Shown here piece by piece: positions 9,501-37,514 of a stretch of DNA of 64,000 nucleotides. This stretch comes from Paraspadella gotoi. Lineage: Eukaryota > Animalia > Chaetognatha. The DNA lies in NCBI GenBank assembly GCA_051294375.1, contig CM119267.1:12905081-12969080 (forward strand), given 5' to 3'. Below the pieces are notes generated by a model. The model did not search any database. It was not told where the DNA came from and was given only the letters and a program-made list of their open reading frames with translations. Within the stretch, counting starts at the first letter, position 1. Every line of letters starts with the position of its first letter. The position numbers and the translations under genes were made by a program.

Positions 9501-12500
9501 TTATCAAAGAAATAAATAATAAGATAAGCAAATAGCATATTTAATACATTGCCAAAGGAAGTGTTTTTCATAATATGTCCAATGCTGTAGATCGAAAAAC
9601 CTTAAATTTTTTTCACATTTTGAATATGCCAGATTGTATGCTATATGCCAGATCATTTTTATCGTCGCAAACGCTTAGCGATATTGTAACGCTTTTGCCC
9701 ATAAGTGGCGTCGTCGTCGTTGTTGTCGTCGGCGTTCCAAATTATAGATCGCCTTTTTTATGATTAAATTTGGGTGTATGAAGCTGAAAATTTATATACA
9801 GCTTCCGATGGAGGATGGAGACAGCGTTCGTTTTGATCTTGGACCGCATCTCTCGTTCTTTTTCACTCCCGGATGTCGGCGTACTTCGAAGGATGCCTCG
9901 ACGAGGCGCTTGAGGGCCTTGTCAGGAGGACGACCTTCTTGGTCAGGCGCTCCTGCCACTGGCGTTTTGATGCCGCATTCTCATACGACATCTGGCTCTG
10001 GGGCTCAAGCGGGAGACTGTTGACCAGCCTCTCGATGTCGTAGGACCCCTCGACTGTCCTCTGTCAATGAGCTACTCGGGTCGACGAGTCTCTCGGCGGG
10101 TGACTGTCGATGAGCCACTTGGCGGACAACTGTTGATGAGCCATTTGGCGAACAACTGTCAACGATCATCTCGGCGGGCCTTGTTGACGAGCCACTTGGC
10201 GGATGATTGTTGCTGAGCTACTCTGCGGACGATGTGGCTCAAAGAGACGGGGTTCTTCTTCCTCTCCCAACGCTACTCGGGTCGACGAGTCTCTCGGTGG
10301 GTGACTGTTGATGAGCCACTTGGCGGAAAACTGTTGACGAGCCACTTGGCGGAAAACTGTTGACGAGCCACTTGGTGGACAACTGTCGACGATCATCTCG
10401 GTGGACCTCTGTCGATGATCATCTCGCGGGCCTTTGTCGACGATCATCTTGGCGGACCTCTGTCGACGATCATCTCGCGGGCCTTTGTCGACGATCATCT
10501 CGGCGGGCCTTTGTCGACGAGCCACTTGGCGGATGACGGTTGATGAGCCACTCGGCGGACGATGTGGCTCAAAGAGACGGGGTTCTTCTTCCTCTACCAA
10601 CGCCCTCTCTGCGCGCTGGTCAGCTTCTCCAGCTTATCGGCATTTTGACGATGGCATCCTTGGCAGCCCTGCCGCTGAGTTGCCGGCCTTCTTTGATCCG
10701 ACGAGTCTTCTTCCGCGTCTGGAGGCCAAAGAAGGATACCGACTGCCTGGCCCCGCTTTGTTCTCCAGCGATGGAGGACTATAGTCCTTCCAGGCCAGCT
10801 TTTCATGCCGGTCGATGTCGCAGGGGCGACCTTCTGCAGGAGTTTTGCACGCTGGAGGTGTCGACGGACGCCTCCCCTCAGTTGGGCCCTCTCTCACAGC
10901 GCGTCCATCTTAGGGAGGTGGTCAGACTCATTGCCCCTTCCTGCCTTCTTTTGTACTGCAGCAGGCTCAGTTGGCTTCTGAGCCTCTTCGGTTCATGGAT
11001 GAGAAGCCTTCCGGCATCCAAGGAGCTCGACGCCGACCCTGATTCAGAGCGTCCACCGCCGCTTTCAAGCTCGCCATCAGGATGTTTTTAGGCGGTGCCA
11101 CTTCTCTGAAATCGACAATTCTACCTTCTCCCTCATCGCCGATGCTGGAGAAGTCTAGCAGGGAGCTCTTCGTGGGAACGAGTTTCTGCGAGTTTCTTCC
11201 GACGTCTTCCTTCGGGATGGAGACGCTCAAGAGAGAGGACTCTCCTGAAGACGTCCTGCACTTCCTCGGGTCGTTGTTTGACAGCCGACAGCACGATCAT
11301 CCTTCACGGATCAGCCATCTCAGCGACTCTCCCTGAAGGGAGCGCCGCCTCAGTTTGCGCTTCGACACGGCGCCACTTCCGGTCACGCCGGGCGTTTTTC
11401 ACCGACGCTCACGCTTCTTCGTCGCTCTAGCATCGGCACGTCGCCCTTCAGAGTTCATTTCTCTTTGCTGCGACGCAGGCCGCCTTCCTCAGCGGCAGTC
11501 TTCTGGCGTTTGGTTTCATCGACGTTCTTAGACCGTCAGGATCGTGCCTTTTGGCTCGCACACGCGTCTTGAGGCTTGGCCGTTCTTGGATCACTGCCCA
11601 GACGAGGGCTCTCTCCTTTTTGGAATTGCACCGCCGCACAATTTTTTCTTCTGCGCCCCGCTCCGCCTTCAGTCGGCCCTCGACGTGGTGCTTCGCTCCC
11701 TTTCAGGGATCTCTTCTCGGAGGTCTCAAAGTTCCGGGATCGCCGCTCGCAGAGTGGATCTCGGCGTCATCTTTGCGCTGGATTTTGGTCTGGCGCGCTA
11801 AAGACCGTCTTCTGACTTCTCTACAGGGACGTCGCTTGGGGCGCCTCTCCGGGTCCTTCTGGAGACGATTGAGGACTTCCAAACCCGGATGAGAGAGAGG
11901 GATCCCCAGGAGGATTTGCCGGGCTTCCATTGGTCGGGGCCGGTCATGTGACGGCATTCCCTGGTTTTTCTTTTTTGCATCTCTGGATGCTATTTTGTTC
12001 GTTTTTCTTACTCTGATAAACGCGCGATCTATCGACTTCGCGAACAAAAAGCATTTCGTGGTGAGGCGGACCGATATAGAATTAATATTCCATAAAGGAA
12101 TTAAAAATTAATTTTCATTTATAGTAACGTCTGGCGAGATCACTATACTTTTAAAATATGAATTTTAATTTCCATTTACGGCGAATATAAGTTATCATTC
12201 GAAAGAATCTACTAGGTGGTGATGGTGGTGGGCGCTGGCCGCGGTCCCCTCGTCCAAGCGACCCTCAACGCCTCCCGAGACTCCGGGATCCCGGTCAAAG
12301 TCTTTGCCGTTGAAAAGAACCCTGGTTGCGCCCTCCGCATTTCGCACATCGGGGACTACGACGCAGCATGGCGAGAAAGCGTCACCGTCGTTTACTCCGA
12401 CATGCGGGACTGGGAGGCGCCGGAGAAAGCTGACATTCTCGTTTCCGAACTCATCGGCTCTTTCAGCGACAACGAACTTTCGCCGGAATGTCTGGACGGT

Positions 12501-13058
12501 TGCAACCCTTACCTAAAGGACGACGTCGTAAGCATTCCTGATCGTTACACCTCCTACGTCGCTCCCCTGCAGTCGACGAAACTCTTCAATCAGATTCGGT
12601 CCTATGTCGAGGAAGAAAAGGGACCTTTGGCTATTTTCGAGATTCCGTACGTGGTGCGAATGCGTAATGCGCTGATCCTGGCCCCACCACAACCCCTGTT
12701 CACCTTCGAGCATCCCAATCGAGATCGCCCGATCTCCAACGAGCGCTACGAAGTCCGGACGTTTGCTGTCGAGGCCGATGCCACGCTTCACGGCTTCTGC
12801 GGATATTTTCATGCGCATCTTTACAAGGAGCAGGAAATTTCTATCCTGCCGGAGAAATACACTCGAGACATGTTTAGTTGGTTCCCGATCTACATTCCAA
12901 TTCGCGATCCGGTTCAGTTAAAGAAAGGATCTTGCGTGGAACTGCAGTTTTGGCGGCGAGTTGAGAAGAAAAAGGTATGGTACGAGTGGGCGCTCACCAA
13001 GCCAGTTCCATCCCCTATTCACAATCCTATTGGGAGAAGTTATGTGATTGGTAAATAA
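6531..13058 (+). CDS. PRMT5: Protein arginine N-methyltransferase 5 (type II), 8 coding exons: 6531-6675, 7087-7182, 7425-7717, 8010-8141, 8215-8292, 8385-8711, 8781-8909, 12216-13058 (~680 aa)
   Basis: GT-AG junctions are phase-compatible and give MSRRVDCGRD..., WFQSVVGRVSDWIDCDS...SEAALNQEL, RWLAEP, LQYPLQPLRDNL..YENFEKDP.KY, VVGAGRGPLV, SELIGSFSDNELSPECLDG, MFSWFPIYIP and HNPIGRSYVIG. AATAAA lies at ~13180. Confidence 0.95.
6738..6982. repeat. Dispersed repeat with one fixed end (possible 3' end of a 5'-truncated retroelement)
   Basis: TATGAAATTGGTACAACCAATATAAAAATTATCC... also at ~27596, ~34343, ~37282, ~62614 and inverted at ~58835-58910. The other end is variable. Confidence 0.7.
8939..12152 (+). 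mobile_element. Helentron-associated (HINE/DINE-like) element family A with nested inserts, filling PRMT5 intron 7
   Basis: Degenerate 5' end TTTTATCTC...AAGCCTGTCTTGGCGCGATAATCG; 3' end TAGTAACGTCTGGCGAGATCACTATACTTT; T-run flanks. Confidence 0.65.
9806..12075 (-). mobile_element. GC-rich decayed retroelement-like insert (gag/ORF1-like remnants, internal tandem repeats)
   Basis: Abrupt GC shift where a family-C repeat breaks off at 9805; broken Arg/Pro-rich minus-strand ORFs; repeats of GAGCCACTTGGCGGA and TGTCGACGATCATCTCG at ~10050-10600. No RT or integrase motif seen. Confidence 0.45.
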
Positions 13059-13552
13059 TTAAACACGAAGTTGGGAATCTCATTTTCTTCCTACTATGTT
13101 TTTTTTACCTTTTCGTTTCAAACAAATCACTATGAAACAATCTAATTTCATTGCGCTTTATTACATTTTTGATTTATTGAAATAAAAAATTAATAAGGAT
13201 TACAGGACGGGTTGACGTGTTTATCTATGAGCAATGAGCATGAGATGTTTTTGTTAGTTTTTCAAGAATCCACTTTCGTTTTCTAGGCGAATTCAAGAAT
13301 CTTTACTTCCATGCTAAGAAATTGTCAAATATTTTCCATAAGAATTTATCCGGACAAATATTATGTCATTATGTAATTTAAAAAATTTTGCTACATTAAT
13401 ATTTCATTTTGTAACGCGTTATATTTAAAAAAATGAATTAATAATCATCTCTTTTTTCTTGATTATTTGTGAACCTTCTTAGCATGTGCTACATTAAGTT
13501 TTTCTGTTTTATAAGGTACTACTTGAAAAGTTGGTAAAATATCATAAAAAAT

Positions 13553-16500
13553 ATGGACATCACTGCTGATCAGTTACTTTTCTTAGAAGTCATTTCGCGA
13601 GGCGATGTTCCACCTCTGTTAAAACTACCTCTGGAAATCCGCAAACTAAAATTTGATTTCGTCCGCGCTCGACTGAAAAAAATAAATAAAGGGCCGACTC
13701 CTTTCCTCGTGACTTTTCCTCTGCGAATAGAGCCGGAAAAAGGATCCCCGAAGCCGAATCAAAACACGGCGCTTTTCTGGGGAATCGTTGGGGAATGTGC
13801 CATCAATCGTCATCTCCGTCTCAAAGCCGATTGGGAGCGCTTGGTCGAGACCATCTCCTTTGATCATGATGTCCTCGAGGTCGGTCAGGTGGTGCTCTGT
13901 CGATCAAAACAACAGAGATTGTCCCCCTCCAAAAAAATTCTGGAATGTCAAAAAGATTTGGATTCGTCGGAGGCCCCCGATGGTATCGCGGAGTCTGAAA
14001 CGAATATTTTTCGCGCCGTCATCCTCACGAAAGCACCGCTCCAAGTCTTCGCCCTCGATAATGGATATTTCAAGCGCGTTACCATGAAGATGTTGTTTTG
14101 TCCGGTAATAGAGGAGCTTCAGCCCGCAGAACAGCCGTTGTTCTCGACCGTGGCCGCTCCTTTTGTCTCTCTCGTTGAGGTGGAGTTAGTCGAGGATGAG
14201 GACGACATCAACGACGACTTGGGTGAAAACAAATGCAGCAAAGTCCCCGTTAAAATGATCGAAGAAGAAAATAGAACGGAATTTTCCATTTCGCCTGTCA
14301 TCGTAAAAGAAAATAATGGTTCTTTCTCTGAGGAAAGGCTGGACGTTGCGGCCACTGCTCGGTCTATTCACGCATTTGATTACGGTGCTAGCGTTGAGGA
14401 AAAACCAGACACGGACTTACGGAGCGAAAGCACTATTGACCATGTTAGTTTGGGTATATATTGATTTAGGAATTAGGATATTTATAGTTAATATTTAACT
14501 TAAAATTCTAATACTGTTACACGCTTTGCAGATTCTTCTTGGCTCCGAAAGCGTATCCGAGGATATTGTTCGATTTCTAAATTCTCAAACTAAAGGATCC
14601 GTTGTTTTCGGCATACTCGGTATGCCAAAGACCTCTGTTGGCATTGCAATCCAGCCAGTCGACTTCCTCGTCGTAGAAAGACGCATCCGCGACGCGATCG
14701 GGACCCAGCTCGGCGACGAGGGGGAATTCGTCCAAAGCCTCCTTAGCTTTCGGTTCATAGAGGTGGTTGGGGAGAGCTTGGATGGGCCGATTCCCTCACG
14801 TCATCGTCACGTCATGTTTCTCGACGTCGCCGGCAGCGTAAACGAAAAAATATTTTGCTTTCGGGTGAGCATCATCGCGAGATGAAATTGACTCATGTGC
14901 AAAAAAAAAAAACGCGCCACTTTAATTTGCAGATACTCCATAAGAATATTTTTTAAAAAAATATAAGAAAAATAATTTTTATTAAAAAATGAATCGATGT
15001 CTATATTTTCTATAAGTTTTATCAAAATTGGTTAAGAAAAAGGGTCATTCAATTCAACTTTAAAAATAGGCTAAAATGGAGTACAAATTCAGAAAGCTGA
15101 GCTCCTGGCGATTCCGAAAATGTATTCACTTTAAGCATTTGATGCATTCTACCCCATTTTATATCGGTTTTAATTATAATATAAAATAAAAGAAACCTAT
15201 CTGAAGAGTTGCAGCTCAAACGAAAAGGCCAATCCACCTGATATTTTTTATGAATTTGTTATTACTGAATTAGAAAAATGTAATAGAGACATTTTTAAAT
15301 TTCAACTTGTATCCTTGAAAAGGAAACATTTTTAAACTTTAACCCTGAATTCTTTCTAACTGGAATGCGTTTATCAAAATGTCTCTCTATTACATTTTTA
15401 CAAATGTTTTTAAGATTGCTAATCAAATTTTTAATTCAATATTATTGCAGTCGTTTAGGCTGCAACTCTTCAAATTTAGTGTAGATTCATTGTAGCTCGA
15501 ATTTCTTTACCATCTATTTAACTGAAGATTTTGTTCATGACTGGAAAACCAACAGAGTAACGAGATTAATTGCTTAATTCTCCCCTTCTAAATTATCCCA
15601 TACCGTGTTTTAACTTCTTACCTAGAATTTTTTAACAACCAGATTGAAAAACGAATCTTTAGAAAATGTGCTTACCCATTTAACTTAACAATTTTGTTAT
15701 TTACCCATTTAAAAAAAATTATTGAAAACGGAATGTTTACATATAAATAAGAACTTATTTTTTTGTGATTACTGATGACTATAATGTATTTCTCGATATA
15801 TTAGCTCTAACACATCAATGATTACGTATTGTTATGCTGAATGACCTTTCCTCTTAAGCTGTTTAAGAGATATGATTTTTTAAACTTGAGTGTTCCAAAT
15901 CAGGAAAGGAAAATCGAATATTATTCAAAAGCTTCAAAATCATTAACCTGTCATGTATCTTATTTTTATCGTCGCAATCGCTGAGCGTCATAATCATAAT
16001 TCGATGTTCTGACATGATATAAGTGTGTGCCCGACAATATTGAGGGGGCGGACCGACGGACCGACAAAGTGAATTATAGAGTCGGGATCTGCTGATAAGC
16101 AGACCCGACTAAAAATGACTCAATTATTGATACACGAATATACTTCTACGAGTAAACTTCTGTTAGATCGAAATAATATGCAAAAAAATTTCAATTTTGT
16201 AATTCTATTTCAACTTGTCAAATAATTGAACAAAACATTTTAAAATGAAAATAAAAAACAAAAACCGAATTGCAATTTTAAGGCGAGTTTATCCCGATGG
16301 AAATCGAAAAAAAAAAAAAAAAAAAAAATTAAAAAATTAATTAATAAGACCAAAATATTTATTCTCGATTTAATAACATTCGTCTGGATTGGTCATAAGT
16401 TTTATTCCGCCTCTTTCTAGGACTACAATATGCACCAATTGCGCAAATTTTTTCTAAAGGGGTCAACTTTTTGGATATGAGGGGACAGGAAGTTGGAATC

Positions 16501-19500
16501 CTAATAAAGGTCTAGTCTCTTTAAAAGGTATTTAAGTTAGCCATATATGAGACTATGGCCTGGTTGATACTTCAAATAAGGACCTAGCAATTGCAAGTTA
16601 TGGGCGTTTTTATTCTATTATGCACAACTTTGTTTGTAAAGTCTCAATCCAAAAAATGAAAAAAAAACGCTTTATAGCTTGAGGCCAGGGCATTTGTATC
16701 AATCGATACCCGGGAGATGTGTTAATGCCAAGGGTCCTGAATTTGACGATTGAATGTATTAATTTTTGTTTGCCATTTTTTTGTTGATCCTCTAAGGAGA
16801 GTGGTTTTTTTGAAAAAAAAAATATTTTTTTTTTAAATTTGAAAAAGTAGTTGCCACTATCTTCTGAAATACCCTCACAAACTCTTTCCTCAAGGGCAGA
16901 GAAATAAAAAAAGATCAATAAACAATAAGATTTTAATAAAAAAATTATAATTTCTGGAGATTTTCGAAATTTTCAATTTTATTTTTTAATTTTTGGGCTT
17001 ACCGAGTATTTTTTTAGAATTTTGCCATTTGAAATTTTTTTTTTTTAAAGTTTATGAATTTTGTTGCTTGACCGTAATTTAGGTTTTTAACAGAAAATGA
17101 ATTGTATGAAAAATGCTTAAGCATCAAGGATCAATCCGCCTGCCAGGAAGTTGATTAATGAATGCAATGATTGAACCAATTTATTGATGCGATGTAACCG
17201 AATATGATCGATTGTGATGAATAACAAAGATGATTGAATGCGATGATAGTCAACTCATGTGATACGATAAAAATAATCATTTTGTTTGATATAGATGGAT
17301 AGTTCATTCATTGATGCGTATGATAAGTCATGTCCATTGTTACGTATAATAGTCATATTCATTGTTACGATGATAGTATCATCGTCTTTGGTACTATGGA
17401 TGATAGTCCAGTTCATTGATGCGATGAATAGTCATTCATTGATGCGATGATAGTCATTCATTGACGGGCGATCAATCTCATCGTAATAAAACATAACAAT
17501 GAGTGGCCGTGTAATGAAAGTGAGAAGAGTAGAGAGATAGCAGAGAGAGAGAAAGAAAGAGAGTAACGGTCACAAAAATCTCAGATGTATAATTTGGGAT
17601 TTTGTATTGAGAAAAAAGCGCGGAATAAATGGCAATAATAAAGTTTTTAGAGTAGGAAGAAAATAATTCAGAATTTTTAGAAAAAACGGCCGAACGATCG
17701 ACGCAAAGAGATCGTACGTAGAGAGAAGAGAGGCGCTAGGACAAACCGCTGGACAGCGCTTTCAGAGCTGAACAGCGTTTTTAGACGAGATCTGAATAGG
17801 GTCGAACTCTATAAATAAATATTAAAAAAATAAAATATTTGGGTATAGTTGTGGTGAGCAACAACAACGCTAAACAACGCGCGAAAAGGGAAACTGACAT
17901 TTAACAATGTAAGATTCCTGGACCTTAATCAACCTTGCTTTTTCTAATTGTACATTGATTGACAAGTATATTAAAAATGTATAAGATTTAATTCGTTGAG
18001 CAGGTTCTCCATTTCTAAATATTTTGACTCACCCCATTGAGTAGGGGCTTAACCGCCTAATTCAGAAGAAAAAAAGAAGAGAGAGAGCGACATTACATTA
18101 TAAAGTGAGAAGGAAAACTTGAACAGCTGCTGGAACAGCCGCTGCAGATGGTTTTTACACGAATCCTAGAACAGAAGCGACGGAGAAAAAGAGAGAAGAG
18201 CACTAACAATAATTAACTAAAAGAGAGAGAGAGAAGAGCTGAACAGCCCTTTACTCCGTGCGCGGGTAGCGGGCCGGAGGATAGCGCGAAGTTCCTTACC
18301 CAATATCCAAAAAATTATAAATCTGTAACGCAACGCCATTTTTCGGTCGCCTTCTCTGTCGCTCTTCTCTTCGTACTTCTTCAAATCATGCCATTTTCAT
18401 CTCTCGTCTTCATTGTTTCGTCATGCGTCTTCGAGCACTCTGTTGCTCAGTGCTTATTTCTTTCATATCATTTTCGTCGTCGTTTGTCGTCGTCTTCTCG
18501 TCGTCAGTTTTGTCTTTCCTCTTGTCGGTCATTTTTCGTTGTTGTCTGTTGTCATATATTTTTTTTNNNNNNNNNNNNNNNNNNNNNNNNNACTTGTCAA
18601 ATAATTGAACAAAACATTTTAAAATGAAAATAAAAAAACAAAAACCGAATTGCGATTTAAAGAGAAGTAAAATTCAATGTAAACTAAAAGTTAAAAATTC
18701 GGCCTAAAAATACAATTAGTTTTAAAAACTTATATTATATTTGGAAATTGCAACATATTCATTTTTTGTCATATTTTATTTCATTTTAAAAGCATTACAT
18801 TTCTATACCAAAGGTCCAAACATGATTTTATTTTCTGCCATAATTTAAAGTTGTTTCGTCATTATCACTGATATAATTTATGTGCTCGTCATTTGGTGGG
18901 GAATGCCCAATGCTTAATCATTGTTATTTATTATTTCATTTAAAAATCATCACATTTCTTTACCAAAGGTCCAGCCATATAAAATTAAAGTCTGTCTCGT
19001 CAATTCACTGCAACTGATATGAATTTACTGTGCTCATCGCCATTTGCGCGAGAGAAAAATCGCCCATTCTTAAATCATTGTATTCATTTTATTTATTTCA
19101 AAAGCATGCACAATTTCTTTACCAACGAGTGTGCCACAACTTGATTTCTATTTTCATGCCAGATAAATTAAAGTTGTCTGGTCATTATACTGATATTGAA
19201 TTTTACTGTGGCTTCATTGCATTTGACCGGAGAATAGGCCTCATATGCTTTAATCAATCTGTTATTTATTTATCATTTCAAAAGCATCACATTTCTTTAC
19301 GCATCGTCGTTACACATTGATTTTAATTGTTATGCCTATAATTAAAGTCTGCTGTGCATTATCACTGATATATTCTAATAGTGTCATCATTTGGCGGAGA
19401 TAAGTGCATTTCTTAATCATCTCGTTATATTTTTTATTATTTCATGTTCAAAAGCATCACATTTTCCTTGATACCATAGGTCCAAACTTGATTTTATTTT

Positions 19501-22500
19501 ATGGCCATAAATTTAAAGCTTGTCTCGATCATTATCTAACTGATACTGCAATTTAATGTGCTCCATCCATTTGCGGAAATGCCGCAATTTCTTAAATCAT
19601 TTGTTATTTTCTATTTGTTTCATTTCAAAAGCATCACATTTCTTTATGTAAAACGGAAGAATAATTCCGGCGAAAATATTGGGCCAAAAACTTGCCATAA
19701 AAAACTGGCCAAACAATTAAGCAACAAGGCAAAACATTTTTTATTATTAATGTCTTTTTTCAAATTTTTCATTAGATGTCTTGTACCAGAAGAGCCAGAA
19801 CAGCATTCAAAAAGTTTTCTGTCATTCATCAATGTTATGTGATAACCCGTGAGCTAGGAAGGATGTCAAAAATTTAATCGCTGCCACTCTTCATACTTAA
19901 TTTTAATTTTCATTCATACTTTTTATCATCTTAATTATTTTTTATTTCTTTTTTTTTCTTTTTAATTCAAACTTTGTATCATTCATTGTTTCATTATTTA
20001 TCATTTAGTATTTTTTTTAATCGACTATCTTTACCGGAGTCATCTTTATAACAGGAATTCGGCAAGCATCAATCTAACCATACAACTATTAAAAATATTG
20101 AATATTAGATAATCACTCTAAGTTAATAAATATTAAAAATATTATTTTAAAAGAAAGGCTTCCACTTCGTGAGTCAAATTGTATTCACCAGCCCCGACAT
20201 TTCTGCATAGGTCTTTTTTCAAAGGACACGAAATTGTCCAGTGCTGTCCATAAAGTTCACATCGACTACAGAATTCTTTGCGCCGAAATGAAAGGATAAC
20301 TGGGTCCGAAAAGAGTTGAAGGCGGTGATAAACGTCCGTAATGTTTGATTCAAGCGATAGATGTCGCGCGTATCTTTCCGAAAAACGCCGTACAAATTTG
20401 TTGAGACCTTCGGGACCTGTTAATTAATTCAAAATTTTAATTATTTAATAGATTATAATGGTTTTCATTTTTTAACTATAATAAAACTTTGTTTTTATAT
20501 GACCTTGTTCTGTCATTTGACCGAGTCCAAATCCGTCGTTCAGGTCAATAAGCTGAAATGAATGAGCGAGCACCGCATGAATACTTTCACTGAGATTAGC
20601 CCAAGGAAAGTTGTCGACTATCAAGCAAGCAGTTTCAGTACAGAGATATTTTAACTTTTCAATGTCAACTCGGTTTTTCGATGATAAAACTCGGAGAATG
20701 ATAGCAAGGTTTCGATGAATAGAAATAACGTTGTCCTTGTTTTCAGCTGGTAGCTTTTCTCTGAATACGGGCAGAACTTCCTCTGAGAAAAATCGCCAAG
20801 CGGCGTTGCCTGTGTCTGTAGTTCCGCCTAAAATTTAAAGAGAGATTAATTTTGAATTAATTTACCAAATAACAGCAATTAAAGAAATCCTAATCAGAGA
20901 ATTTTTAAAGTATTCAAACCTGAAAAAATACTATATAAAATTTTATTGCTGTCCATGAAAAGCAAATAATTTGTTTTATGATTTTGATAAAAAAATGTTA
21001 TTTTTTAAATGAAGGAGATAAAAAGCAAAACAGAAAAGAGAAAGAGAATGGGTTATATATTTAAAACAAACGAACATAGCAACATATGGAGTCACTTTGT
21101 TAACAGGGAATATTTCTACTTTAACAATACCTTTTGAGGACGGCATATCCATGATTATACCAGTTTTTTCAGCAATAGCACGAATCCAGTTTTGACGAGA
21201 CTTTTCCACTTTTTCTCTTTATTTTTCACCAGATGTTCTCCAAACTTTTACCTTTGCGCTCAGTCTGTACAAAAACTTTTGGAACCAAGAGTAAACTCTT
21301 AATCTTTGATGCAATGGGCGGGGCGATTGATTGATTTCTTGAACAGTTAATGGTTTCTGGGTGATACCTTGTCTTGTTTCATAATCATTACGTTCCTTGA
21401 GAACCTCACCTGTTTGCTCATCAAAACATCTCCGAAAGGCTTCATGAATTTGTTGCATTGATCTATCTAGCGGTAAACCGGCAATTATCATTTCGCGCGA
21501 CTGCGCCTGTTTTTCAGAAACTTTGCAATAGTTACAAAATACTCCGCCTGTTCCCGCGGCCTCTTTCACAGCTTTACCATCTGCAAGAAGAAGCTGAACC
21601 TCGTTCTCAAAGTGAACTTCAATATCATCAAGTTTTATAACACTTCCCGCTGCCTCTACCTCGGCCTTCTCTCTGTCAAGAATCGGTAAAAATTTAGACA
21701 AAAGTTCCCTATTCTCTTTTTGCGGCATAATCATGTAAGGCCTTATTCCGTGCGGGGATGCAATAAGATGGTTTAAATAAACCTGATCACCAGATTGCGT
21801 AGTAATGTCGCGCAAGGCAACAATGACGAGTTCTCGAAATTCTTGTGCGAGATTATTTCTTGATGCTTGCATAGCTTTTTGTTGATCTCCACTGCCATCA
21901 AAGCCAGTGAGCCAACGCACCTTTAACGGAAAAGCTGATGAATCCAGCGAGTTGATCTTATCGATAAAATCTGGCAAGAAGCATGTACGCGTAAGGGTAG
22001 TTTGAAAAATTTCTGGAAGAGTTCCTCTGACTCCGCCCAAAAATTCAATGGTTTTGTAATACATGTTTTTTTCATACAATGACATCTTATAGACTGGAGG
22101 AAGGCGAACGCCATACTGTAACAAGCGCAAACGGAGTTTTGTCCATTGACGCTGCGAAAGTTCGAGTTCAACGTTTTTCATAAATTCTGCTTCTTCTATA
22201 GTCATGAGACAATTCTCTTGTTCTTTCTGAAAATTTCCTTCATAAATCAATTTGCCAGTTTGGCCTAAGAACCGGTTAGAATTAAAACATTCTTTTTGAA
22301 TAACACGACCGCATAACTGCGTGACTGTTTTTCCTAGCTTCTCTGAGGCATCTCGAAGAGCATTGACGACTGGCTGAAGCTTCTCTGTCTGATACTTAGG
22401 AGAAACATCATCGAGTTTTTGAACCTTAGGTCGACCTCGTTTTCGTCCGTTTTGAAAAGCTGGAAAATCAGCATTCAAGGATGGCGATGGTGAACAATGG

Positions 22501-25371
22501 CTATCCATATCCTGGTGGTTTTGAGAAGAAATACTAAGTGGAAGGGGCGACTAGATTGCCTGTCTTTGACTTAAAAAGGGATCAAAAAAGGAACATGGCA
22601 TTCTTGAGCCTGTTCATCTTGGGGTTGACAATCTTGAGCTTGGCCGTTTTTAAATTGGCTGTCTTGAGTTTCGTTGTCTTCCAAATTCTCTTGCCTTGCT
22701 TCGCGAGACTCTTGCAAGGGATCCAACAATTGCTGCATGCTTTTTGTGAGTACTGCTGTATGGAGAAAGTCAACGGAAACGCTGGTTTTGTTCTTTTGTT
22801 TTTTTCGAAAATGATTTGCAATGCGGCATTTGACTCTATTAATGAGATCATAAAAACGATTCTCTCTATCATCCTCACTTAATTCTTGTTTGAACTGTTC
22901 AACAACCCACATTGCAACCTTTTGGTAACTGTCAACTTCATTTTTTTTTTCAAAAGCTTCTTTAAAAGTAACCCGACGTCTTTCAAGGTCAGATTCTTCC
23001 ATGGTAACAATAAATGCCCGAAGTGCGCAAAACTGAAAAAAATTTACTAATGAAATGCGAGGTTTTGGCATATATTTTTAGTCGGATCTTCTTATAAGCA
23101 GACCCCGACTTTGAGATAAAATGATTGTCATTTTTTTATTATAAATTATTGATAGTTTTTATATTTTTCTATTTGTTGGCTCAAACTTTTAAATCTTTGT
23201 AATTGGTATATAACTTATTAGAATAATTTAAAAAATTGTTAAAATTTATTAATGAATTTAAATAATCAAAATGTCTTCTGATATGATTCAAAGTAAAATT
23301 CAAAGTAAAATGAATATTTCTCCCTTCTTCTCCCTATTTCAACTGTGGATATCAACTTTGGAATATAATATAATATAATATAATACTTTTTAGACGAGAC
23401 GAGACGAGTCTTGTTGACGAGACTGATTGACGAAACCTTTTGGACGAGACTTGTTGACNNNNNNNNNNNNNNNNNNNNNNNNNNNNNNNNNNNNNNNNNN
23501 NNNNNNNNNNNNNNNNNNNNNNNNNNNNNNNNNNNNNNNNNNNNNNNNNNNNNNNNNNAGGGCGTTAACCTGGAGGTCTTTTTAGAAAATCAGGCAGTAA
23601 TCAGGCAAAATCTTGTCGGTAAATCATTTTTATCATATCAGAAACTCGAATTATGATAAATTATGCAAAAAAAGTCCGTCTGTCTGTCCGTCCCCCCTAA
23701 GCATTAAACTTCAATTACTCGTTATTGGATGGATGGATTGGAATGAAATTGTGTGTGTGGGTAGGAAAGTGTGTGATTGAGTTGGATATAAAGTTTCGAT
23801 AGAATCGTGCGAGTTTAAAGTTTAAATGGAAAAAAAAATCTATTTCACTATTTGAACGCTAATTACGGACGGGGCGATTGACTTAAAATTTTGTATGTGG
23901 GGAGGAAAGTGTGTGATGAAGCTGGATATCAAGTTTCGATGGAATCGTCTGAGTGGAAATGAGTTTAAATTGAAAAAATAAAAAACCTGTTTCACTAATT
24001 GATTATGCTTCTTTTTCTTTTTATATTAAATGTAAATGCAAGATGTATTAATTAATCAGTTAATTAATCAATTAATAAATAATTAATCGGTCAATTAAAT
24101 ATACAATCAATCAATTTATTTAGTTAATAATTAATATAATAAAGTAATTAATCTACAATCAAGTCTATCATTATCAGCATTATTATCATCGTCGCAATCA
24201 TCCTCGTTGCTTTTGTCGTGGTCAGTGACGAAAAGACCTAAAAACAAACATTTTGGATCAAATTAATTAATTTATTAGTTAATTTATTATTTTAGTTTAT
24301 ATAGTTTGTATTAATTAATTAATTACCGCTAATGATCGTGGGCAGATCCGACATTGTTTATTCAAACTTTTTTTTTTGCACATGACTGGAGGTGGAATTT
24401 CCATCTTGTAGAATATCTATTAAGTACTCCCGCAGAGATTCTACCCGTGGAGGCAATTGACATCCAACAATGATGTCTACAAACGCAACCTCTTTTCTGA
24501 AGCCGGCGTGGTTTATGAGAGAGCGGAAAATAGACGGAAAATAGATCATGGTGGTCGTTTAACTGGGTAAATTTATTTCTTATACGTAAATTTTTCCGGG
24601 TATGTACTTTGCACGTAGATTATGAGACTTGTAGAATTGTATAATTTTAACGTGAGTGCAACCAATGGTAATAATTAATAAAATCTGTTCGGTTATGTTT
24701 AAAAGAAAACGGAATACGGAAAATGTTACAACGCAAGTATTGTTCGATCCGCAATTCTTCATGGGTGACGAGTGCCCTTTCGTCGAAGATCAGACGACGC
24801 AAATCTCCCCGGAGATTTTCCCCGCTTCGATGTCCCTTAACGATTTGGCGAGAGATATTTCAGCCATGTACAACGCTTCTGTCGGAGGTTAATCGAAACA
24901 AAATTTTATTCTTACTTATTACTACTTATATTTCTCTTCGACATAGGTTCTATATTTTTCGGTTTTTCCGGTTCTACCTACGAACTTCGGACGAGCGGCA
25001 TCAAGATTCTCTCTCCTTCGATTAGTTCTTTTGAGCGAATCGTTCACGATGCTGTAAGCAGTATGAAACCTAACTCTCCGGTTTTTCCTGCGCGCGTCTT
25101 CCTCCATGCCATCTATGAGCGCGAGTCTTCCTCGGAGATTACCCCGATCCGCGACAAGTTCGTGATCGAAATCCGCGTGGCGCCTCGACACGATTTGGAG
25201 TTTTTCTCGGTAATGTTCCGAGAAACTGCAGACGTTCGACCTCACAGAGGCCTAGTGGCTTTCGACGTCAGAACGGGAAAGATGGTGGGGCAACGCTCTT
25301 TCTATCTGCGACTTGGCACAGAAGTGAGGGAAGTTTCTGTCAACGAAATTCGAAAACGAGCTTTCGAGTAA
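13553..25371 (+). CDS. Extended-Tudor + two Schlafen/AlbA_2-like domain protein; exons 13553-14443, 14532-14864, 24436-24566, 24706-24887, 24947-25371 (~653 aa)
   Basis: Exon 1 has the eTudor pattern FWGIVG...LEVGQVVLCRS...IFRAVIL...VFALDNGY...PLFS. Exon 2 has DIVRFLNSQTKGSVVFGI...FRFIEVV...HVMFLDV. Exons 4-5 have LARDISAMYNASVGGSIFFG...FVIEIRVAP...FYLRLGTEVREVSVNEI. All four introns are GT-AG with matching phases (0,0,2,1). The join across the gapped 9.6-kb intron is inferred. Confidence 0.72.
15036..15853. mobile_element. TTAA-flanked MITE (Sola3/Kolobok-like termini)
   Basis: TTAA|GAAAAAGGGTCATTCA...TGAATGACCTTTCCTC|TTAA. Inverted copies at 31322-32781 (with a nested MITE) and 49127-49944. 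Confidence 0.75.
18567..18591. other. Assembly gap (25 N); other gaps at 23459-23558 (100 N) and 30408-30432 (25 N)
   Basis: N runs in the sequence. Confidence 0.99.
18770..19645. repeat. ~155-180-bp tandem repeat, about 5-6 noisy units
   Basis: AAGCATCACATTTC-like anchors at ~18790, 18944, 19102, 19282, 19452 and 19629. Confidence 0.7.
20142..23002 (-). pseudogene. RAG1-like/Transib-superfamily DDE transposase, disabled; exons ~23002-21131, 20827-20504, 20416-20142
   Basis: Motifs in order: RGRP, WLTGFDGSG (D1), LLLADGKAV...VFCNYC (D2 + CxxC), PRPLHQRLR, GGTTDTGNAAWRFF, SIHAVLAH, GLGQMTEQGPEGLNKFVRRF (catalytic E), RLQLFSDP. Two phase-compatible GT-AG introns. In-frame TAA at 21219-21221; frameshift plus TAG at ~22551-22590. 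Confidence 0.88.
23076..24377 (+). mobile_element. HINE-like family B element (interrupted by N-gap)
   Basis: 5' TTTTTAGTCGGATCT..TTATAAGCAGACCCCGACT, GTCY microsatellite, 3' GGCAGATCCGACATTGTTTATTCAAACTTT. Further copies at ~43285-45000, ~45032-46135, end ~48205 and ~16000-16115 (-). Confidence 0.65.
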
Positions 25372-25999
25372 GTTAGACTTAAATGTGGAAAACGATTGAA
25401 GTTCATTTTTAGAAAGTTAGTAGCTTTTCGTCGGTTTGGCTGTTGTTCTGTAACTCCGTTCTATATCATTCGGTTAATATTGCTTCATTTAATGTTCAAT
25501 TTATGCTTAATACTGTTTCAAACTTGTAATCATGTGATTACGTGCAAATCCGATAATAAAATAATATGACCAGAAAGTTAATTTAATTGATACTAAAGTG
25601 AGGTATCATTTTACGCTGGTTATTCGTATATCTTATGACCTTATTGAAATGCGTTTGCGAGATTAGAAAGTCAAAAACAGAATAATTTGTATGATCTTTA
25701 ATTAATTATCTTATAACATATAAGTACGTAAATGATTAATAATAATTCATAAGACGCTTTTTTTGCATATTTCTCATATTTGTATAGACTGACGACGTAC
25801 ACGTTATCATTTGTATATCCGTGCAAGTAGTAAGTCAAGCGGCGCGACAAATTGGAATATCCGTTTTTAGTTATAATAATTTTGACTGTTTCCATTTAAT
25901 TTTTTTTACAGAGACTTATTGGATCGGTGGCGTTCTGCCACAAAATTAGGAAAAGATTTACTGGCGAAGAAGTGACCTTAAAAAGCTAATGTGTTGATC

Positions 26000-26525
26000 T
26001 TTTTTTCTTGCCAGACGGGCTAAAGCCTTGGGCGTAGATAATCGTTTGCTTTTTGTGACGTCGTCGTTGTCATCACGCTTTTTTACAATTGGAAATTGTA
26101 AAAGTGTATGGTGGACTAAAATCAACCTTCAGCGGCCATTGATGCAGGAGTCAAGTTATTTGTTTCCCAACCCAAAGTTCCGGGTAGTCGCCTAGAGGGA
26201 TAGGGCGCTTAACCCGCCTGTAGCACGGTATTACAGAAGCTTATTGAACGGTTCTGTCACTACCTCATAACAATTCTTACTGTCTTATTGGTGAGCTCGA
26301 CTTTCGAACACAACAGCAACAACTTTCTGGCAACGTGCCTCAACCTGGCGATGCACTTTCCGCCAACACATCAGGCGACATGCCTCAACTTGGTGACAAA
26401 TTTTCCACCTACAATACACTGAAGAGACGTAACAGATTTTTCCCCTGGGGAGAGGGGATTTCTTCTTTTGTTATTTTTTCATTAATTTTCTTTTATATTA
26501 ACATCTGGCGAGATCACTATACTTT
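26000..26525 (+). mobile_element. HINE-like family A element
   Basis: 5' TCTTGCCAGACGGGCTAAAGCC, GTC microsatellite, 3' ACATCTGGCGAGATCACTATACTTT. Confidence 0.7.
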
Positions 26526-28210
26526 GGGATTTTTTTGTAAATCATTTAACCACTGAAATTGTACATTTCTTTGTCTTTTACTTTTTTATTATGAGCATTT
26601 TCCTTTTAATTTCTGTCTGCACCCACTTGATCTTCAGTTGCATCGCTCTATACAAAATATTAAATTTTTGCCCGTTTTAATTTTAATAAACCAGAGGGTG
26701 GTATAAACAAAATAATATTTTTAAAAACAAAATAACAGTAAAATTTAGTTTAAGTATATCCACTAGAGGTTTTAAAATTTTTTTTAAAACAAAAGAACAG
26801 TCAAAATAAATTTAAGTTTTTGTTTTTTTTTTATTTTCTTATTTTCTTATTCTATGTCTTGATTAAAGAATTTTATAAATATTTTTGCTAGTATTAAAAT
26901 ATTATTAGTTCCGCAGTAACAGTTATTTTAAGCCCTTGAAAGTGATTTACATGTATTGGCGCAGCCACTGGTTTATCGATTTTGTTGAATTCGCGATTTT
27001 CAGAACAGAGAGGGCATTGCGGATTTAAATTAGGCTTATTTTCTTAAAGTTAAGTGTTAAGGTTTAAAGGTTTTTTTTGGCGTCTCATTGTTCAAAAATC
27101 ATTATTTTTATAGTTTTTATATAATTTTTATATTTTATCGTTTTTAAGTTTTAAAATGTATAAAACTATAATTTTTCCTTCATTAATAAAAATAATCATC
27201 ATTTGTAGACCATCTGAGCATTCTGTTTTTAAAAAAATGTTTAATATTTAGAGCTTTTATTAACATTCGCATGACTGTTTTTACTTTTTTACTTGGCAAT
27301 TGGCAATTATGTTTTATCATAGTTACAAATTTACTAAATGTGATATTTCGTTTGTGTTAATATTTTTCAATAGACAGGACTTATATCCGCTAAGAGGCAG
27401 TTTCAGTTCTGATTCAGCTCTTGCTTAGGATTTTAGAAATCCCTTACAGCGGTTCTTCTACATAATTATCTAATTTTGACAGCATTAGCACATTAATGAA
27501 TACGTAATACGTATTGCAATGGGTAATGATGAAAATATCAAAGTTGATGAGGATAATTTAAAAAGCTATATACATATTATAAATATTAAATAATTATATG
27601 AAATTGGTACAAAAAATATAAAATGTATCCATTCATCTTATAAATAAGCTATCTTGCCCATGACTTTGGACAGGCTATGGTGGTTTAAGGCCTCCATCAC
27701 TCTTACAAGATAATGACATAACAGGTCCCTGCAAGCTTTCAATCAAGTCTCTCACAGTCTCGTTTATTCACTTCCAGAGTACCTGGCTTCCCTATCAATG
27801 AAGTGGAAAATATTTTAAAGAATGTTTCACTTGTATGAAAAGACCACTCCCTTACCATGATAGAAAAAAAATTGGTTTGGAAAAGTCGGTTAATTTTGTT
27901 ATCAAATAGATATTTTGGCCAGTAAATAGGTTTTAAGAGTAATATGACCTCCCTAGGACTGAAAAAAAAATTATTTCTCAACAGTATAAAATTATTTAAT
28001 GCATTCAGATACTTCTAAAAAAGGTTGTCTCCAACTGTTTTGACCTTTTTCTGATCAAGAGGACTACTCACATTTTTAATATTTTATCTCTGATATGATA
28101 TTTTTTATCAGATTTAAAGCAAAAAATAGTCTTTGGCAAGCAGCAAAAAAGATTTATCCCATATAAAGTAAACCAGGCTTGAGTTGTTGTTGCATAATAT
28201 GATGTATTAT

Positions 28211-28789
28211 TAGAGCCAAACTTTGTCAATGGGGTGGGTCAGAAGTTTGATTTAGGAACCTTCCCAAATGAAACTTCATACATTTCTGAGAAAACTTTCA
28301 ATGGACCAAAATTTTCTAAAATGGCGAGAAGCACTAGTAATTAATTTTTTAATATTTATTTATATATAGGAAATGTAAAAAAAATTTTTGGCATTTTGTA
28401 TTTTTAAAAGCAGATTCAGATAGCTTATGAAAAGTTGTCTGAATAAAGTAAGTGGGTCAAAATTGGGAAAAACCTGAAAAAATCTTCATCATCATTATCC
28501 GATAATTTTAATAGTTTTTGCTCATTTTCAGTAACAAAACATCACAATTTTAAAAAGTTGTAATTATATTTTTTGCCTAACTTTTTTAGCTCAACCAGAA
28601 TCAATTAAGAAAACTTAGAATATTAAAAAAAATGTTTATATTATATAGCAAAATAATAATTTTAATTAACGAATTACTCATGGTTCGGAACATTTTTGCA
28701 AAAAAATATTTTAACACAATAACTAATACCAATAATGGATTCGTTTAATACTGTTCCCATTAAATTTTGAATTTGGTCGGCTACCGCTA
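28211..28789 (+). mobile_element. Copy of the TAGAGCCAAAC MITE family
   Basis: High similarity to 1473-2078; GTATTAT(T) duplicated on both flanks. Confidence 0.75.
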
Positions 28790-31700
28790 GTATTATTTTT
28801 CATTTCAACAAAATCTTGATTTTTTTTTTTTAGATTTGTTTGATATTTGGTTCTGATAATCCAACCAGTGGTAAATAAAAATGATGACTTTATTCATAGA
28901 AAGTTTACCCGGAGTATTATAACTTTTATTAATACTTTATAATATAAAAAGAATATTCTGGAGTATCAACAGCATCAATGTATTTTTAAGGTCTCTCTTT
29001 TTTTGATATATGAATTAAGATTCATCTTTGAATCTGTCCTAATGGAGATGATGCAATTATTATTTGAGAAAAGGCAAGGATTATTAATAGAGTGGAGGTG
29101 GTCGAGATAAAAATGGCTAACAAAATGAGATGAATCGATTTATTGAAATCAGAAAAGCGAATGGAATCGAATTGGCTAATTGTACAAAGTGGCATTCATT
29201 TTTATACGGCGAGAGAGAGAAAATTTGGTTTACATTTGTAAAGTAAACAATTCTAAAATACTTCCAAATAAGGTAACGTTTTGCGACCGGCGTTTGAACA
29301 GAAGGAGCAAAATATTTCTTAGCGGGCATTGGAATTTTTAAAGAATTCGGCCGGCGATTTTATTTACTTTCTTACTAATAATAATAATCAGGATCTCCAC
29401 TATAGTAACGGTTTAACTCAAAAAGTAATAAAAAGGAACCGGAAATTAGTATAAATAAAAAGTAGAGATATGAAAAGATAAAAAAGGAAGCATTTTTTTG
29501 GACAACTCATTTTCTTTTGCATGGAACTCTTGTATTTTTTGTCGTACATAAATGAGACTCAGCTTATATGAATCACAAAAGTCTAAAGTTTCTTGATATG
29601 TAAATTTTATTTTTTGCGGGGTGGCTCTAGGGGCGGCCCCAGGGTGCAGACTATTCCAGGGGGAGCAGCAAAATGGTTATTGAGGGGGGCGCTCCTAATA
29701 GACCCAAAATGTTTGCCCCAGGGGGAACCCCCTGAGTCGGCCCCCCGGGGCCCCTCGGGGAGCAAAAAAGTGCTCCCCCAAAGGCGAGTTAAGGAGAGAG
29801 CAAAGTTTAGATGAGAATATATATTCTTTCTGACTATGTTATTGTATCTGAGAATATCTCTCCCTGTCTGTTACTCTTTTTTTCACTCTTTCTCTCTCCC
29901 TTTTTCTTTCTCTCTCCTTTTTTCTTTCTTTCTCTCTCTCTCTCTTTTTCTCTTTCTCTTTCTTTCTCTCTTTCTTTTTTCTTTTTATCTCTTTCTCTCT
30001 CTTTCAAGACTTATTTCATGTAACTGAAAAAAATATATATTTTTTTCAAATTATTGTTAACTCGTTTATTCCATATTTTATCTAAAAATTATAATATTTA
30101 TATTTTTGAACCTAATTATTTTATTTCAATTAAAAGATATAGAAACAAGTTTGAACAAATAATATATGATATGGCCACAATAATTTAGTAGTAAGAAGCT
30201 AATCAGTCATGTTTTTTTTTTTTTTTTTTCTTTCTTTTGTTTTCCTTTTTTTTTCTTTTGTTGGATGGACATTAAGGCGTAGTAAAATTTCTAAATTTAA
30301 CTTTAATTAAAATTCTAAAAGTGAGGAACGAACAACATTATACTAATGAACATTTATATAATAAATGTATTATAAATTTTACAATTTACGCAGTAGGCCA
30401 TATTTATNNNNNNNNNNNNNNNNNNNNNNNNNACTAGTACTAAACTAATAAATGTTAAAATTTCAAAACAGTTTTTCTAAGATTTTTTGGAGATTTGGAT
30501 TCGTCATAAAAAAGTTGATAAAAAGAAATATAACTCTTTTTGAAAAATTCCTTCATTAAGTGGTCAAAAAATTAAAAAACTATATTTTAAGCTGAAAATT
30601 AACTTTTTATATATTAAATATAGTTTTTTTAACTTTTAACCCACGTAATGAAAGAATTTTTAAAAATGATTTATATTTTCTTTTATCAACTTTTTGACGA
30701 GGAATTCAAATCTGCCAATCAAAATTAAGAAAAGCCTATTTTGAAATTTTTTTTGATTTTATAAGGATAGTACTATATATAAATATAGCCTACTGCGAAA
30801 ATTAAAAAGCATAAAATTAATTTTTTTTACAAATTAATCGTTTACATGGTATGGTTATGTTGTTTCATAATTGACTTTTAGAATTTTCGTATTGTAACTT
30901 TCACTACGCCTACGAGATTAATTTTTTTAAAAAATTTTAATTTGATGCTTCAAAAAAGAATTAAATAAATCATAAATAAACAAATAATGAGCAGTAACCG
31001 ACAGACGCAGCTGAATTATGGAGTCACAAAAAAAAAACTATTATCAAAAGTTTTTAATTCATGATTAACATTAAATGAGTTCCACATCGTGAAAGAAATG
31101 TTTTTTCATTTAAGATTTGTATTTAATAATCGTCAGTTTGTAGATTGCCTCAGATGAACTCACGTTGTTGAGGAGAGGCTGACGGTTTGAGACAGAGAGA
31201 GTGAGCAAAACTTTATATCAAGCTCAATGACATACTTTTCTACCCACACAAGATTTTATTTCAATCCATCTACCTAATCACGAATAATTGAAGTTTAATG
31301 CTAATGTGGGACGCAACTTAAGAGGAAAGGTCATTCAGCATAAACAATGCGTAACCATTTGTATTAGAGCTAATACATCGAGAAATACATTATAGCCATC
31401 AGTAAATCACAAAAAAATAGTTTTTATTTATATATAAACATTCTGTTTTCAATAATTTTTTTAAATTCGGTAATAACAAATTGTCAGCTTAAACGGTAAG
31501 CCATATTTTTAAAGAATTTTGTTTTTCAATACTGGTTGTTAAAAAAATTCTAGGTACAGAAGTTACTAAAACACAGTAAAGGGAAAGTTTTAGAAGAGGA
31601 GAATTAAACAATTAATCCTTGTTAACTCTTGTTGGTTTTCACAAGTCATGAACAATAAATCTTCAGTTAAAAAGATGGTAAAGGAGGAATTTTGAGATAC

Positions 31701-36845: not shown

Positions 36846-37514
36846 GGTGTTGGCGCAGCTATTGGTTCATTGATTGATTAATTGAAATAAAAAATATTAT
36901 TTTTATATTTTATTTTAATTAAAGATGAAAAAAGATAGAGGGAGAGAGAGAGAGAGGAGAAGGAGAGAGAGATAGGAGGGAGAGAGAGCCGTTCCAGGGG
37001 GCAGGTTCCCAAGGGGAAAGGTTTTTCTAGCCCCTGGGGGATTCCCCCTGGAGTGGCCCCTTGGGGCCCAAAAAAAAGGTTACAGGGGACCGCCCTCAGC
37101 CGGTAAAGATTTGCCTGCCCCTGGGGGCCGCCCCGCGGAGCCATCCCGCGGAGCTGCCCCTAGCACCGCCCCCGGGGGAGGCGATTCTGAAGGATGACAT
37201 ACTTAGGTAACTGCGAAAATTTTTTTTCCATCATGGTAAGTATTAGTTTGCGGACTAGCATCAAAATACAAAGAGCTGAATTTTATGAAATTGGTACAAC
37301 CAATATAAAAATTATTCATTCATTTAATAAATAAGCTATCTTGCCCCTGACTTTGGACAGGCTTTGGTGGTTTAAGGCCTTTATGTTATAGCTGGGTAAA
37401 AAAGATGAAAAATATTTAAAAACTCAAAACAAAAAAAAAATAGTGGCTAAATTTTACTACGTAATTAAAAAAGAAATACTCAACCTCATTACTCAATGCT
37501 CAAAAATGTTTTAG

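Follow-up and report, generated by a model that had tools for sequence, protein, structure and literature searches.

Among the described Transib transposons, the elements of Subgroup I are defined by RAG2-binding helices, a GRP motif, a CTT1 tail and the lack of RAG2 and have been called intermediates, and the insect-type elements of Subgroup II are characterised by the loss of alpha11-alpha12 and a CTT2 tail (Tao 2022, PMC9435367). Asymmetric terminal inverted repeats (TIRs) are a further feature of Subgroup I, and a later study states that Transibs have been found to carry such TIRs as well as the CCGHC tail and GRPR/K (Martin 2023, 10.1101/2023.08.20.553239). The accessible portions of other sources give a distance between the second catalytic Asp and the catalytic Glu (D-to-E) of 206-214 in insect Transibs and 253 in RAG1 (PMC1131882), a Chapa zinc finger in Chapaevs and a low copy number as typical of autonomous Transibs (PMC4411706), and N-terminal helical domains in fly Transibs (10.64898/2026.08.26.747230). 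Here we compare with these systems a transposase gene on the minus strand of a 64-kb stretch of DNA from Paraspadella gotoi, the whole of which is called the window and supplies all coordinates. With a probability of roughly 0.68, this locus is a broken gene of a RAG1/Transib-family DDE transposase with two likely introns, most likely a Subgroup I Transib and probably a decaying, immobile copy. Together with its relatives it most likely represents an unnamed subfamily within the described Subgroup I Transibs, and thus a new member rather than a new kind.

The gene extends on the minus strand from an ATG at 23002 to a stop codon at 20144-20142 (Table 1). Removal of two introns, 21130-20828 and 20503-20417, leaves a frame of 672 residues from 22550 that is interrupted by a single stop and in which the D-D-E residues (codons 21899-21897, 21581-21579 and 20411-20409), CxxC, HxxxxH and the RGRPK start are all present. 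The second Asp and the Glu are 260 residues apart, the ZnC2-to-PLH spacing is 72 as compared to 68-78 in 50 of 51 aligned rows, and the tail motif Cx2Cx5Hx4C at 20270-20226 is one residue longer than Cx2Cx3GHx4C. A first interpretation made from the letters alone (the sequence-only reading) had proposed this splicing, the RGRPK start of a nonamer-binding domain (NBD) and a Cys/His tail with one extra residue. All of this was borne out: both introns have GT..AG ends, the D-D-E core, the zinc site and the quoted motifs are restored, and these motifs are contiguous in relatives.

Relatives were sourced from ENA, JGI and Logan. A search with the middle open reading frame (ORF) found eight proteins at 43-49% identity, to which a profile search added four; most relatives are intact, 750-770 amino acids (aa) long and collinear with the spliced window protein. 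A search of cluster representatives returned 375 hits at E 0.001, 150 of them listed, and the 37 listed hits of at least 530 aa were aligned with the window protein and 13 close relatives (51 rows). D-D-E and the zinc ligands hardly vary across this alignment, and the subfamily lies within a wide array of proteins of 700-790 aa that share its architecture. In a quick IQ-TREE tree of 45 rows (six truncated rows dropped, no bootstrap, no outgroup) the window falls into a 14-row clade with a Shimodaira-Hasegawa-like approximate likelihood ratio test (SH-aLRT) value of 99 and a stem of 0.63, P0001 and P0004 being nearest. Identity is 40-51% within the subfamily versus 23-34% to other relatives. 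The GRP motif occurs in 12 of 13 close relatives and the tail form with the extra residue in nine of the ten that have a tail; among 37 relatives examined, nine tails have the canonical Cx2Cx3GHx4C spacing, nine the window-type spacing and two another, and 17 proteins have none. The second Cys of CxxC, kept in the window, aligns to Gly in eight of 13 close relatives with a Cys two residues later, possibly a rearranged zinc site in intact members.

Among the relatives, P0004/L001 and P0012 are intact and intronless. The 2.9-kb L001 contig contains the transposase only and no recognisable TIR; a short hairpin lies at 2735-2770, about 340 bp downstream of the stop. A metagenome scan gave one locus from 181 candidates, which is without element ends, motif and profile scans of viral contigs for RAG1L and insect-type Transib references gave no match, and all five loci from a prokaryote genome scan were dismissed as chance matches. 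In the Atlas, look-alike clusters of 648-743 aa reached scores of 0.93-0.94, were mostly arthropod where the phylum is known, and carried RAG1_RNase_H on 28-38% of their members. Our literature search, which extended neither to Repbase nor to subscription journals, found no description of the subfamily.

Which of the known enzymes does the protein resemble most? The middle ORF as a single sequence had no match in Pfam and PDB, and profiles were needed to reach Transib/RAG1. The subfamily profile scores HzTransib at 93.9 bits (E 6e-26), ProtoRAG at 51.4 and RAG1 at no more than 38.3 bits, and an 86-row profile gives 265 (E 1e-77), 209 and 157 bits. Profiles of two other subclades follow the same order (ProtoRAG/HzTransib bits 121/175 and 121/191), a ranking that is a comparison of scores and not a tree. 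In PDB the clear relatives were these three only, with no solved Subgroup I structure, and Pfam RAG1 appears faintly in four of eight relatives (best E 7.6e-6, which narrowly misses the cut-off). An AlphaFold2 model of the intact relative P0004, folded rather than the window's spliced protein (predicted local distance difference test score, pLDDT, 91; predicted template modelling score, pTM, 0.76), replaced an earlier model from 12 rows (pLDDT 64). It aligns with HzTransib at Z 32.5 and a root-mean-square deviation (rmsd) of 2.6 over 470 residues, with RAG1 at Z 32.2 and rmsd 5.9 over 553, residue 111 falling onto RAG1 387 where the NBD starts, and with ProtoRAG at Z 28.5 and rmsd 2.9 over 503; the next family, the P element, follows at Z 11.8, and Foldseek agrees. 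Judged from this model, HzTransib and RAG1 fit equally, a tie. Identity in the structure alignments is 16-19% to RAG1/RAG1L versus 21-23% to HzTransib, and by its sequence the protein is nearer to Transib than to RAG1.

These scores go along with a mixture of traits. RAG1-like are the GRP-type NBD, a zinc domain about 40 residues longer than that of HzTransib, the D-to-E distance of 260 and the zinc-knuckle tail; Transib-like are the long GGTTDTGN loop, SDP and the lack of N-terminal zinc fingers. For 52 profile positions of the alpha11-alpha12 region HzTransib has 11 residues, ProtoRAG aligns through, and the P0004 model shows helices at 442-452 and 467-470. The GGTTDTGN loop, in turn, aligns without gap to HzTransib and with an 8-residue gap to ProtoRAG. 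The protein has the RAG1-core-homologous DDE transposase of the Transib superfamily and shows three protein features of Subgroup I, namely the alpha11-alpha12 region, a CTT1-type tail and an NBD-equivalent with GRP; a Subgroup II Transib was rejected on the presence of alpha11-alpha12, the CTT1-type tail and the D-to-E distance of 260. By eye, MleTransib_3931 and _2823 of Mnemiopsis (Tao 2022 supplement) have the same motif series, a Cx2Cx3GHx4C tail, an acidic end and predicted introns, and the Mnemiopsis proteins of that supplement carry an N-terminal extension of roughly 110-170 residues. The mixture of a Transib-like core with RAG1L-like features (GRP start, Cys/His tail, RAG1-length zinc domain) had been recognised in the sequence-only reading, which took it for a lineage intermediate between Transib and RAG1L. 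The mixture is confirmed, yet the intermediate grade is already in print as Subgroup I Transibs (PMC9435367). What that reading had named as speaking against its idea, nesting in described Transib or Chapaev clades that already share the tail and intron pattern, largely applies: Subgroup I, a described Transib group, already shares the tail.

The N-terminal domain is a trait of the whole subfamily and not of the window copy alone. Against a profile of the relatives' N-termini the window scores 82.6 bits (best of 980 shuffles, 7.7), tblastn gives E 2e-10 and 1e-16, and on this profile the top-scoring shuffle is exceeded by six of 49 more distant proteins. The conserved part comprises about 100 aa, 110-122 residues preceding GRP in 11 of 13 relatives (the other two being truncated), and most full-length rows of the alignment have an extension of about 90-150 residues; the P0004 model predicts helices here. 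The extension of about 165 aa that had been called unfamiliar does match no named domain in Pfam, PDB or Atlas, but its conserved portion is common to the subfamily, the additional length in the window being the low-complexity linker that carries the lesion. An Atlas search with the N-terminal 100 aa reached 0.78 at best, below significance, and fold searches barely probe that part. The first 100 residues or so contain a single Cys, with no Chapa zinc finger, no RING and no Pfam hit above cut-off.

Both introns have GT..AG ends and a low GC content, 0.23 for the 303 nt of intron 1 and 0.14 for the 87 nt of intron 2 as compared to 0.37-0.43 in the flanking exons. A sister copy is present in sequencing runs of the same organism; it matches in four stretches at 80-88% identity and lacks exactly 303 nt across intron 1 (506 letters skipped, 203 letters between; runs X3 and X9). 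Because splicing at both junctions rejoins motifs that are unbroken in intact relatives, and because of this exact absence, the two introns are well supported, and both are probably spliced out. The gene calls of P0001, P0042, P0043/P0198 and P0090 end about 9 nt downstream of the intron 2 position, after the catalytic Glu motif, and that of P0044 near the intron 1 position, at the target loop, which suggests introns at these points. In X3 the contig depth is 254-354 for the sister copy versus 69-85 for the window's own copy, a hint of a few copies that gives no count. In X9, possibly an RNA run, only the sister copy is present, in the same form as in the DNA runs, and own-copy sequence occurs in samples from two studies. 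A repeated, Introner-like origin of intron 1 was rejected, as it has no second copy in the window and no high depth. That sister copies differ by the exact loss or gain of this intron is a minor example of how introns come and go within a transposase gene.

How damaged is the gene? Of the two stops and the frameshift initially reported, the frame break stands in three of three runs and may be a third intron, and the stop at 21221-21219 turned out to be a polymorphism. This TAA is a stop in run X3, possibly the source run, and Gln in the own-copy contig of run X5 from another study (one contig, depth 6.7), where it is the sole difference in 181 bases; the position is therefore an allele. The own copy is covered there by X3 and X5 and not by X6 or X7, and the sister copy reads Gln in four of four runs. 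Recoding of the stop codon was rejected on two grounds: with the standard code the long ORFs of the host stay open, and Gln is found at this site elsewhere. Further upstream the N-terminal frame closes at TAA 22573-22571, and the core frame is preceded by TAG 22553-22551. The frame change near 22550-22590 is no assembly slip, because all three covering runs (X3, X5 and X6, from two studies) lack a gap; X5 and X6 each have one other letter. The linker from the P-A/V-L/M-T/S motif to GRP measures about 105 codons as compared to 24-34 residues in all 11 relatives measured and consists partly, by eye, of in-frame repeats of about 30 nt. It may have suffered a real lesion or may contain a third intron; an in-frame ATG lies at 22508 just before the GRP motif.

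Ends of a mobile element were searched for as well. Between 23003-30000 and 14000-20141, 61 x 35 CAC pairs included no convincing pair of CAC-initiated TIRs and none with a perfect 5-bp duplication. Two ctenophore elements have CACAGTG at their predicted TIR ends, and a CACAGT at 23347, for which no downstream partner was found, may be a relic of the 5' TIR, a chance site there being expected about once in twenty by our estimate. The hexamer has 18 matches in the window versus 11.3 expected, with none on the plus strand between 6903 and 27752, and an N gap begins 111 bp beyond the copy at 23347. The one strong inverted match, of 23074-23110 with 16080-16116, was rejected as element ends, being a high-copy hairpin repeat. 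This 36-bp palindromic hairpin lies 70 bp upstream of the ATG and reaches a summed contig depth of tens of thousands in X3; other copies run on into a GTCC-type microsatellite, and we take it to recall DINE-1/Helentron-type elements.

Decay is thus indicated by the nonsense allele, the frame break in all three runs and the failure to find a TIR and target-site duplication pair, and since it has probably no end pair left, the window copy is probably immobile. Several points weigh against the preferred explanation as a whole. The published Subgroup I, Subgroup II and RAG1L proteins are outside the tree, so the Subgroup I placement was made by features and by using look-alikes of ctenophore proteins as proxies (P0138 aligns at 28% over 559 columns). 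The assignment of MleTransib_3931, MleTransib_2823 and Pleurobrachia PbaTransib to Subgroup I is itself derived partly from features. Four look-alikes of ctenophore proteins fall into the same unrooted radiation without adjoining the window's clade, and the deep forks of this quick tree without bootstraps are weak (SH-aLRT 81-93). As to decay, element ends might lie hidden in the N gaps at 23459-23558 and 18567-18591, and 2.4 kb of coding DNA is clean outside the linker and the one polymorphic stop, with all catalytic and zinc residues intact. In addition, 29 of 42 differences listed between own and sister copy fall on third codon positions (p 2e-6), and a script found 36 GT/GC..AG pairs that would restore the linker frame, none combining a strong donor with a strong acceptor.

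Could the gene be alive, as a domesticated or still expressed transposase of the same family with a third intron in the linker, assembled from an individual with a null allele? The Gln allele in an independent run, the intact active-site and zinc residues, the clean GT-AG intron ends, the lack of a TIR pair and the recurrence of the same sequence in samples of two studies would all suit such a gene. Moreover, a stretch of about 30 nt contains both the stop and the frame change, which could be spliced out together with, for example, a 44-nt GT-AG (22594-22551) or a 161-nt GC-AG (22694-22534) segment. However, the ends of these candidates are weak, the linker with 36-43% GC is exon-like and unlike the two introns with 14-23%, a nonsense allele does exist, and a sister family is present in the same runs. 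The bias towards third positions among the differences listed would be expected between active transposon lineages too, and introns are no mark of domestication here because gene calls of relatives stop at similar intron positions. On balance we consider a live gene unlikely.

A separate undescribed lineage between Transib and RAG1L, for example a sister group of the RAGL transposons, would account for the good separation of the subfamily (stem 0.63, SH-aLRT 99, 40-51% identity inside versus 23-34%), its private tail form in nine of ten close relatives with a tail, GRP in 12 of 13, the alignment of the P0004 model with RAG1 including the NBD, and TDTGN, which a line-break-sensitive search found in none of the supplement proteins examined (0 hits). 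Yet the profile leans no more to ProtoRAG (51/94) than those of other subclades do (121/175, 121/191), the Transib-length target loop is kept where ProtoRAG has the 8-residue gap, and the subfamily falls within the wide array of similarly built proteins of 700-790 aa (375 hits); we consider such a lineage decidedly improbable. A true RAG1L gene of ProtoRAG type deprived of its RAG2L partner, or a Chapaev transposase, might be read into the CTT motif, the NBD, the RAG1-length zinc domain and the faint Pfam RAG1 in four of eight relatives, but is largely refuted by the absence of N-terminal zinc fingers and RING, with one Cys in the first 100 residues and so no Cys/His-rich N-terminus where Chapaevs, in the available part of PMC4411706, carry the Chapa zinc finger, by 16-19% identity as against 21-23% to HzTransib, by the Transib-type loop and by the lack of a kelch hit in the ORFs scanned.

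A bolder proposal, which we hold tentatively and regard as doubtful, is that the subfamily (the window and at least 13 relatives, several of them intact) forms a RAG2-free, RAG1-shaped branch that keeps both DNA clamps together with the RAG2-docking helices and a helical N-terminal domain of no known class, and that it stands next to the RAGL root or is represented here by a domesticated, spliced host gene of a deeply diverged animal. If true, the pairing of GRP domain and zinc-knuckle tail, proposed to be evolutionarily unstable, would be stably kept, and a branch next to the RAGL root would provide the best present-day model for the enzyme as it was prior to RAG2 capture.

How would an intact member of the subfamily act? 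It would act as a dimer. By analogy with HzTransib, ProtoRAG and RAG, as described in the available parts of PMC7204232 and 10.1101/2023.08.20.553239, it would work without RAG2 and bind CAC-initiated terminal repeats through its core and two clamps, the GRP domain clamping a distal AT-rich element as in RAG1 and the zinc-knuckle tail the bases just inside the heptamer as in BbeRAG1L. Nicking would be followed by hairpins on the flanks, excision of the element and insertion with a 5-bp duplication. The product of the assembled allele of the window copy would be cut by the nonsense codon, and in the Gln allele the frame break would cut off the N-terminal domain, unless the core is rescued by a third intron or by a restart at ATG 22508.

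The RAG1-RAG2 transposon has been proposed to descend from Subgroup I Transibs, of which the published examples examined are few, gene-predicted and partly degraded. The window locus, a damaged copy, changes little by itself; its value is as a lead to intact relatives and the 375 hits. These proteins bring two questions within reach of experiment: whether RAG2 is dispensable for an enzyme that has RAG2-docking helices, and what use is made of two redundant DNA clamps in combination. As to the claimed bacterial root, the two 'bacterial' Thioglobus Transibs of the PMC9435367 supplement lie on short contigs of 4,563 and 3,240 bp with coverage 5.4 and 0.19 in assemblies of uncultured bacteria, and possible eukaryotic contamination of these contigs bears on it.

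Table 1. Positions of transposase parts and associated features in the window
Feature	Position	Strand	Remark
Lone heptamer-like start CACAGT...	23332..23347	-	345 bp upstream of ATG, left-end orientation; possible 5' TIR relic, weak
ATG and conserved N-terminal domain, ~95 aa, predicted helical, one Cys	22718..23002	-	profile, tblastn, model of P0004
Expanded low-complexity linker with TAA 22573-22571, TAG 22553-22551 and frame change	22441..22717	-	real lesion or third intron
Main exon: RGRPK nonamer-binding start, dimerisation/DNA-binding region	21131..22550	-	
Main exon (continued): RNase H fold with Asp 21899 and 21581, CxxC (ZnC2), alpha11-alpha12 equivalent, PLH	21131..22550	-	
In-frame TAA at Gln position; null allele, not fixed	21219..21221	-	sequencing runs
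Likely intron 1, 303 nt, phase 1, within first Gly of GGTTDTGN loop	20828..21130	-	missing from sister copy
Exon: Transib-length target loop, zinc-domain helices, HxxxxH (ZnH2)	20504..20827	-	
Likely intron 2, 87 nt, phase 1	20417..20503	-	sister copy: different letters, similar length
Last exon: catalytic Glu, C-terminal domain, CTT1-type zinc knuckle, acidic end helix, stop	20142..20416	-	

In the surroundings of the gene, tblastn found no second transposase copy in the window, and scans of 14 and 21 ORFs, a selection of those in the window, gave no hit for kelch, PHD or chromodomain. A RAG2L-like gene was detected neither downstream, in a satellite array and N gap, nor upstream, in keeping with the sequence-only reading, which had seen no RAG2-like partner. 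Directly downstream, at about 18780-19680, lie some five diverged head-to-tail copies of a unit of about 175 bp, seen by eye and missed by Tandem Repeats Finder at score 30. A multi-exon gene on the plus strand (about 24400-25371), spanning an N gap and transcribed away from the transposase, may be a host gene or a passenger; its last exon (about 138 aa) has no Pfam or PDB match. The neighbouring genes are host-like (ADAT1, PRMT5, C2H2, MATH, BTB). On the plus strand, 5110-6468 and 7316-13058 hold intron-poor host genes, with ADAT1 in one 452-aa open frame and PRMT5 in pieces, interrupted at about 10070-12000 by a GC-rich stretch with 26-bp repeats. PRMT5 is closer to the vertebrate than to the nematode chain, and ADAT1 is only about 29-43% identical to any of the listed animal proteins across phyla, the host, an animal lacking close annotated relatives, therefore being deeply diverged. 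A 308-aa open frame at 13538-14464 on the plus strand has no Pfam hit and looks partly Tudor-like by eye. Inverted-repeat pairs at 55530-56486 (86 nt at 100%, enclosing 785 nt), 43408-44359 (190-270 nt at 92-94%) and 15060-15763 / 49216-49921 (dispersed, 480 nt at 89%) are probably miniature inverted-repeat transposable elements or foldback-type elements, and large 18-bp minisatellite arrays occupy 32976-33900, 36070-36880 and 46800-48050.

Taken against the known systems, the protein shares with the vertebrate RAG1 core the fold from NBD to C-terminal domain, the GRP motif, D-D-E and the zinc site, whereas RAG1 is a domesticated recombinase that needs RAG2, has RING, zinc fingers and an acidic tail, and is 16-19% identical. 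With ProtoRAG BbeRAG1L (PDB 6B40) and RAGL it has in common the Cx2Cx3GHx4C-type tail and the RAG1-length zinc domain, and PflRAG1L-A carries both GRPR/K and the CCGHC tail according to the available part of its description; the RAGL elements differ in having RAG2L, N-terminal zinc fingers and a shorter target loop and in their lower profile score. Insect-type HzTransib of Helicoverpa zea (PDB 6PQN/6PQX) is the best PDB sequence match and tied-best structure match, with a long target loop, SDP and no RAG2, but its zinc domain is about 40 residues shorter for want of alpha11-alpha12. From the Subgroup I Transibs the window's subfamily is set apart by about 27-32% identity to the ctenophore-like proxies, by the extra residue and a conserved Trp-Thr in the tail and by an explicit GRP, and the window copy by being broken and without a recognisable TIR pair. 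What it shares with them is a single RAG1-core-like gene with alpha11-alpha12, a CTT1 tail followed by an acidic helix, an NBD-equivalent, an N-terminal extension, the motifs GFDGSG, GxGGxxC, GGTxxTGN and GLGxxxExGxExxNK, and predicted introns.

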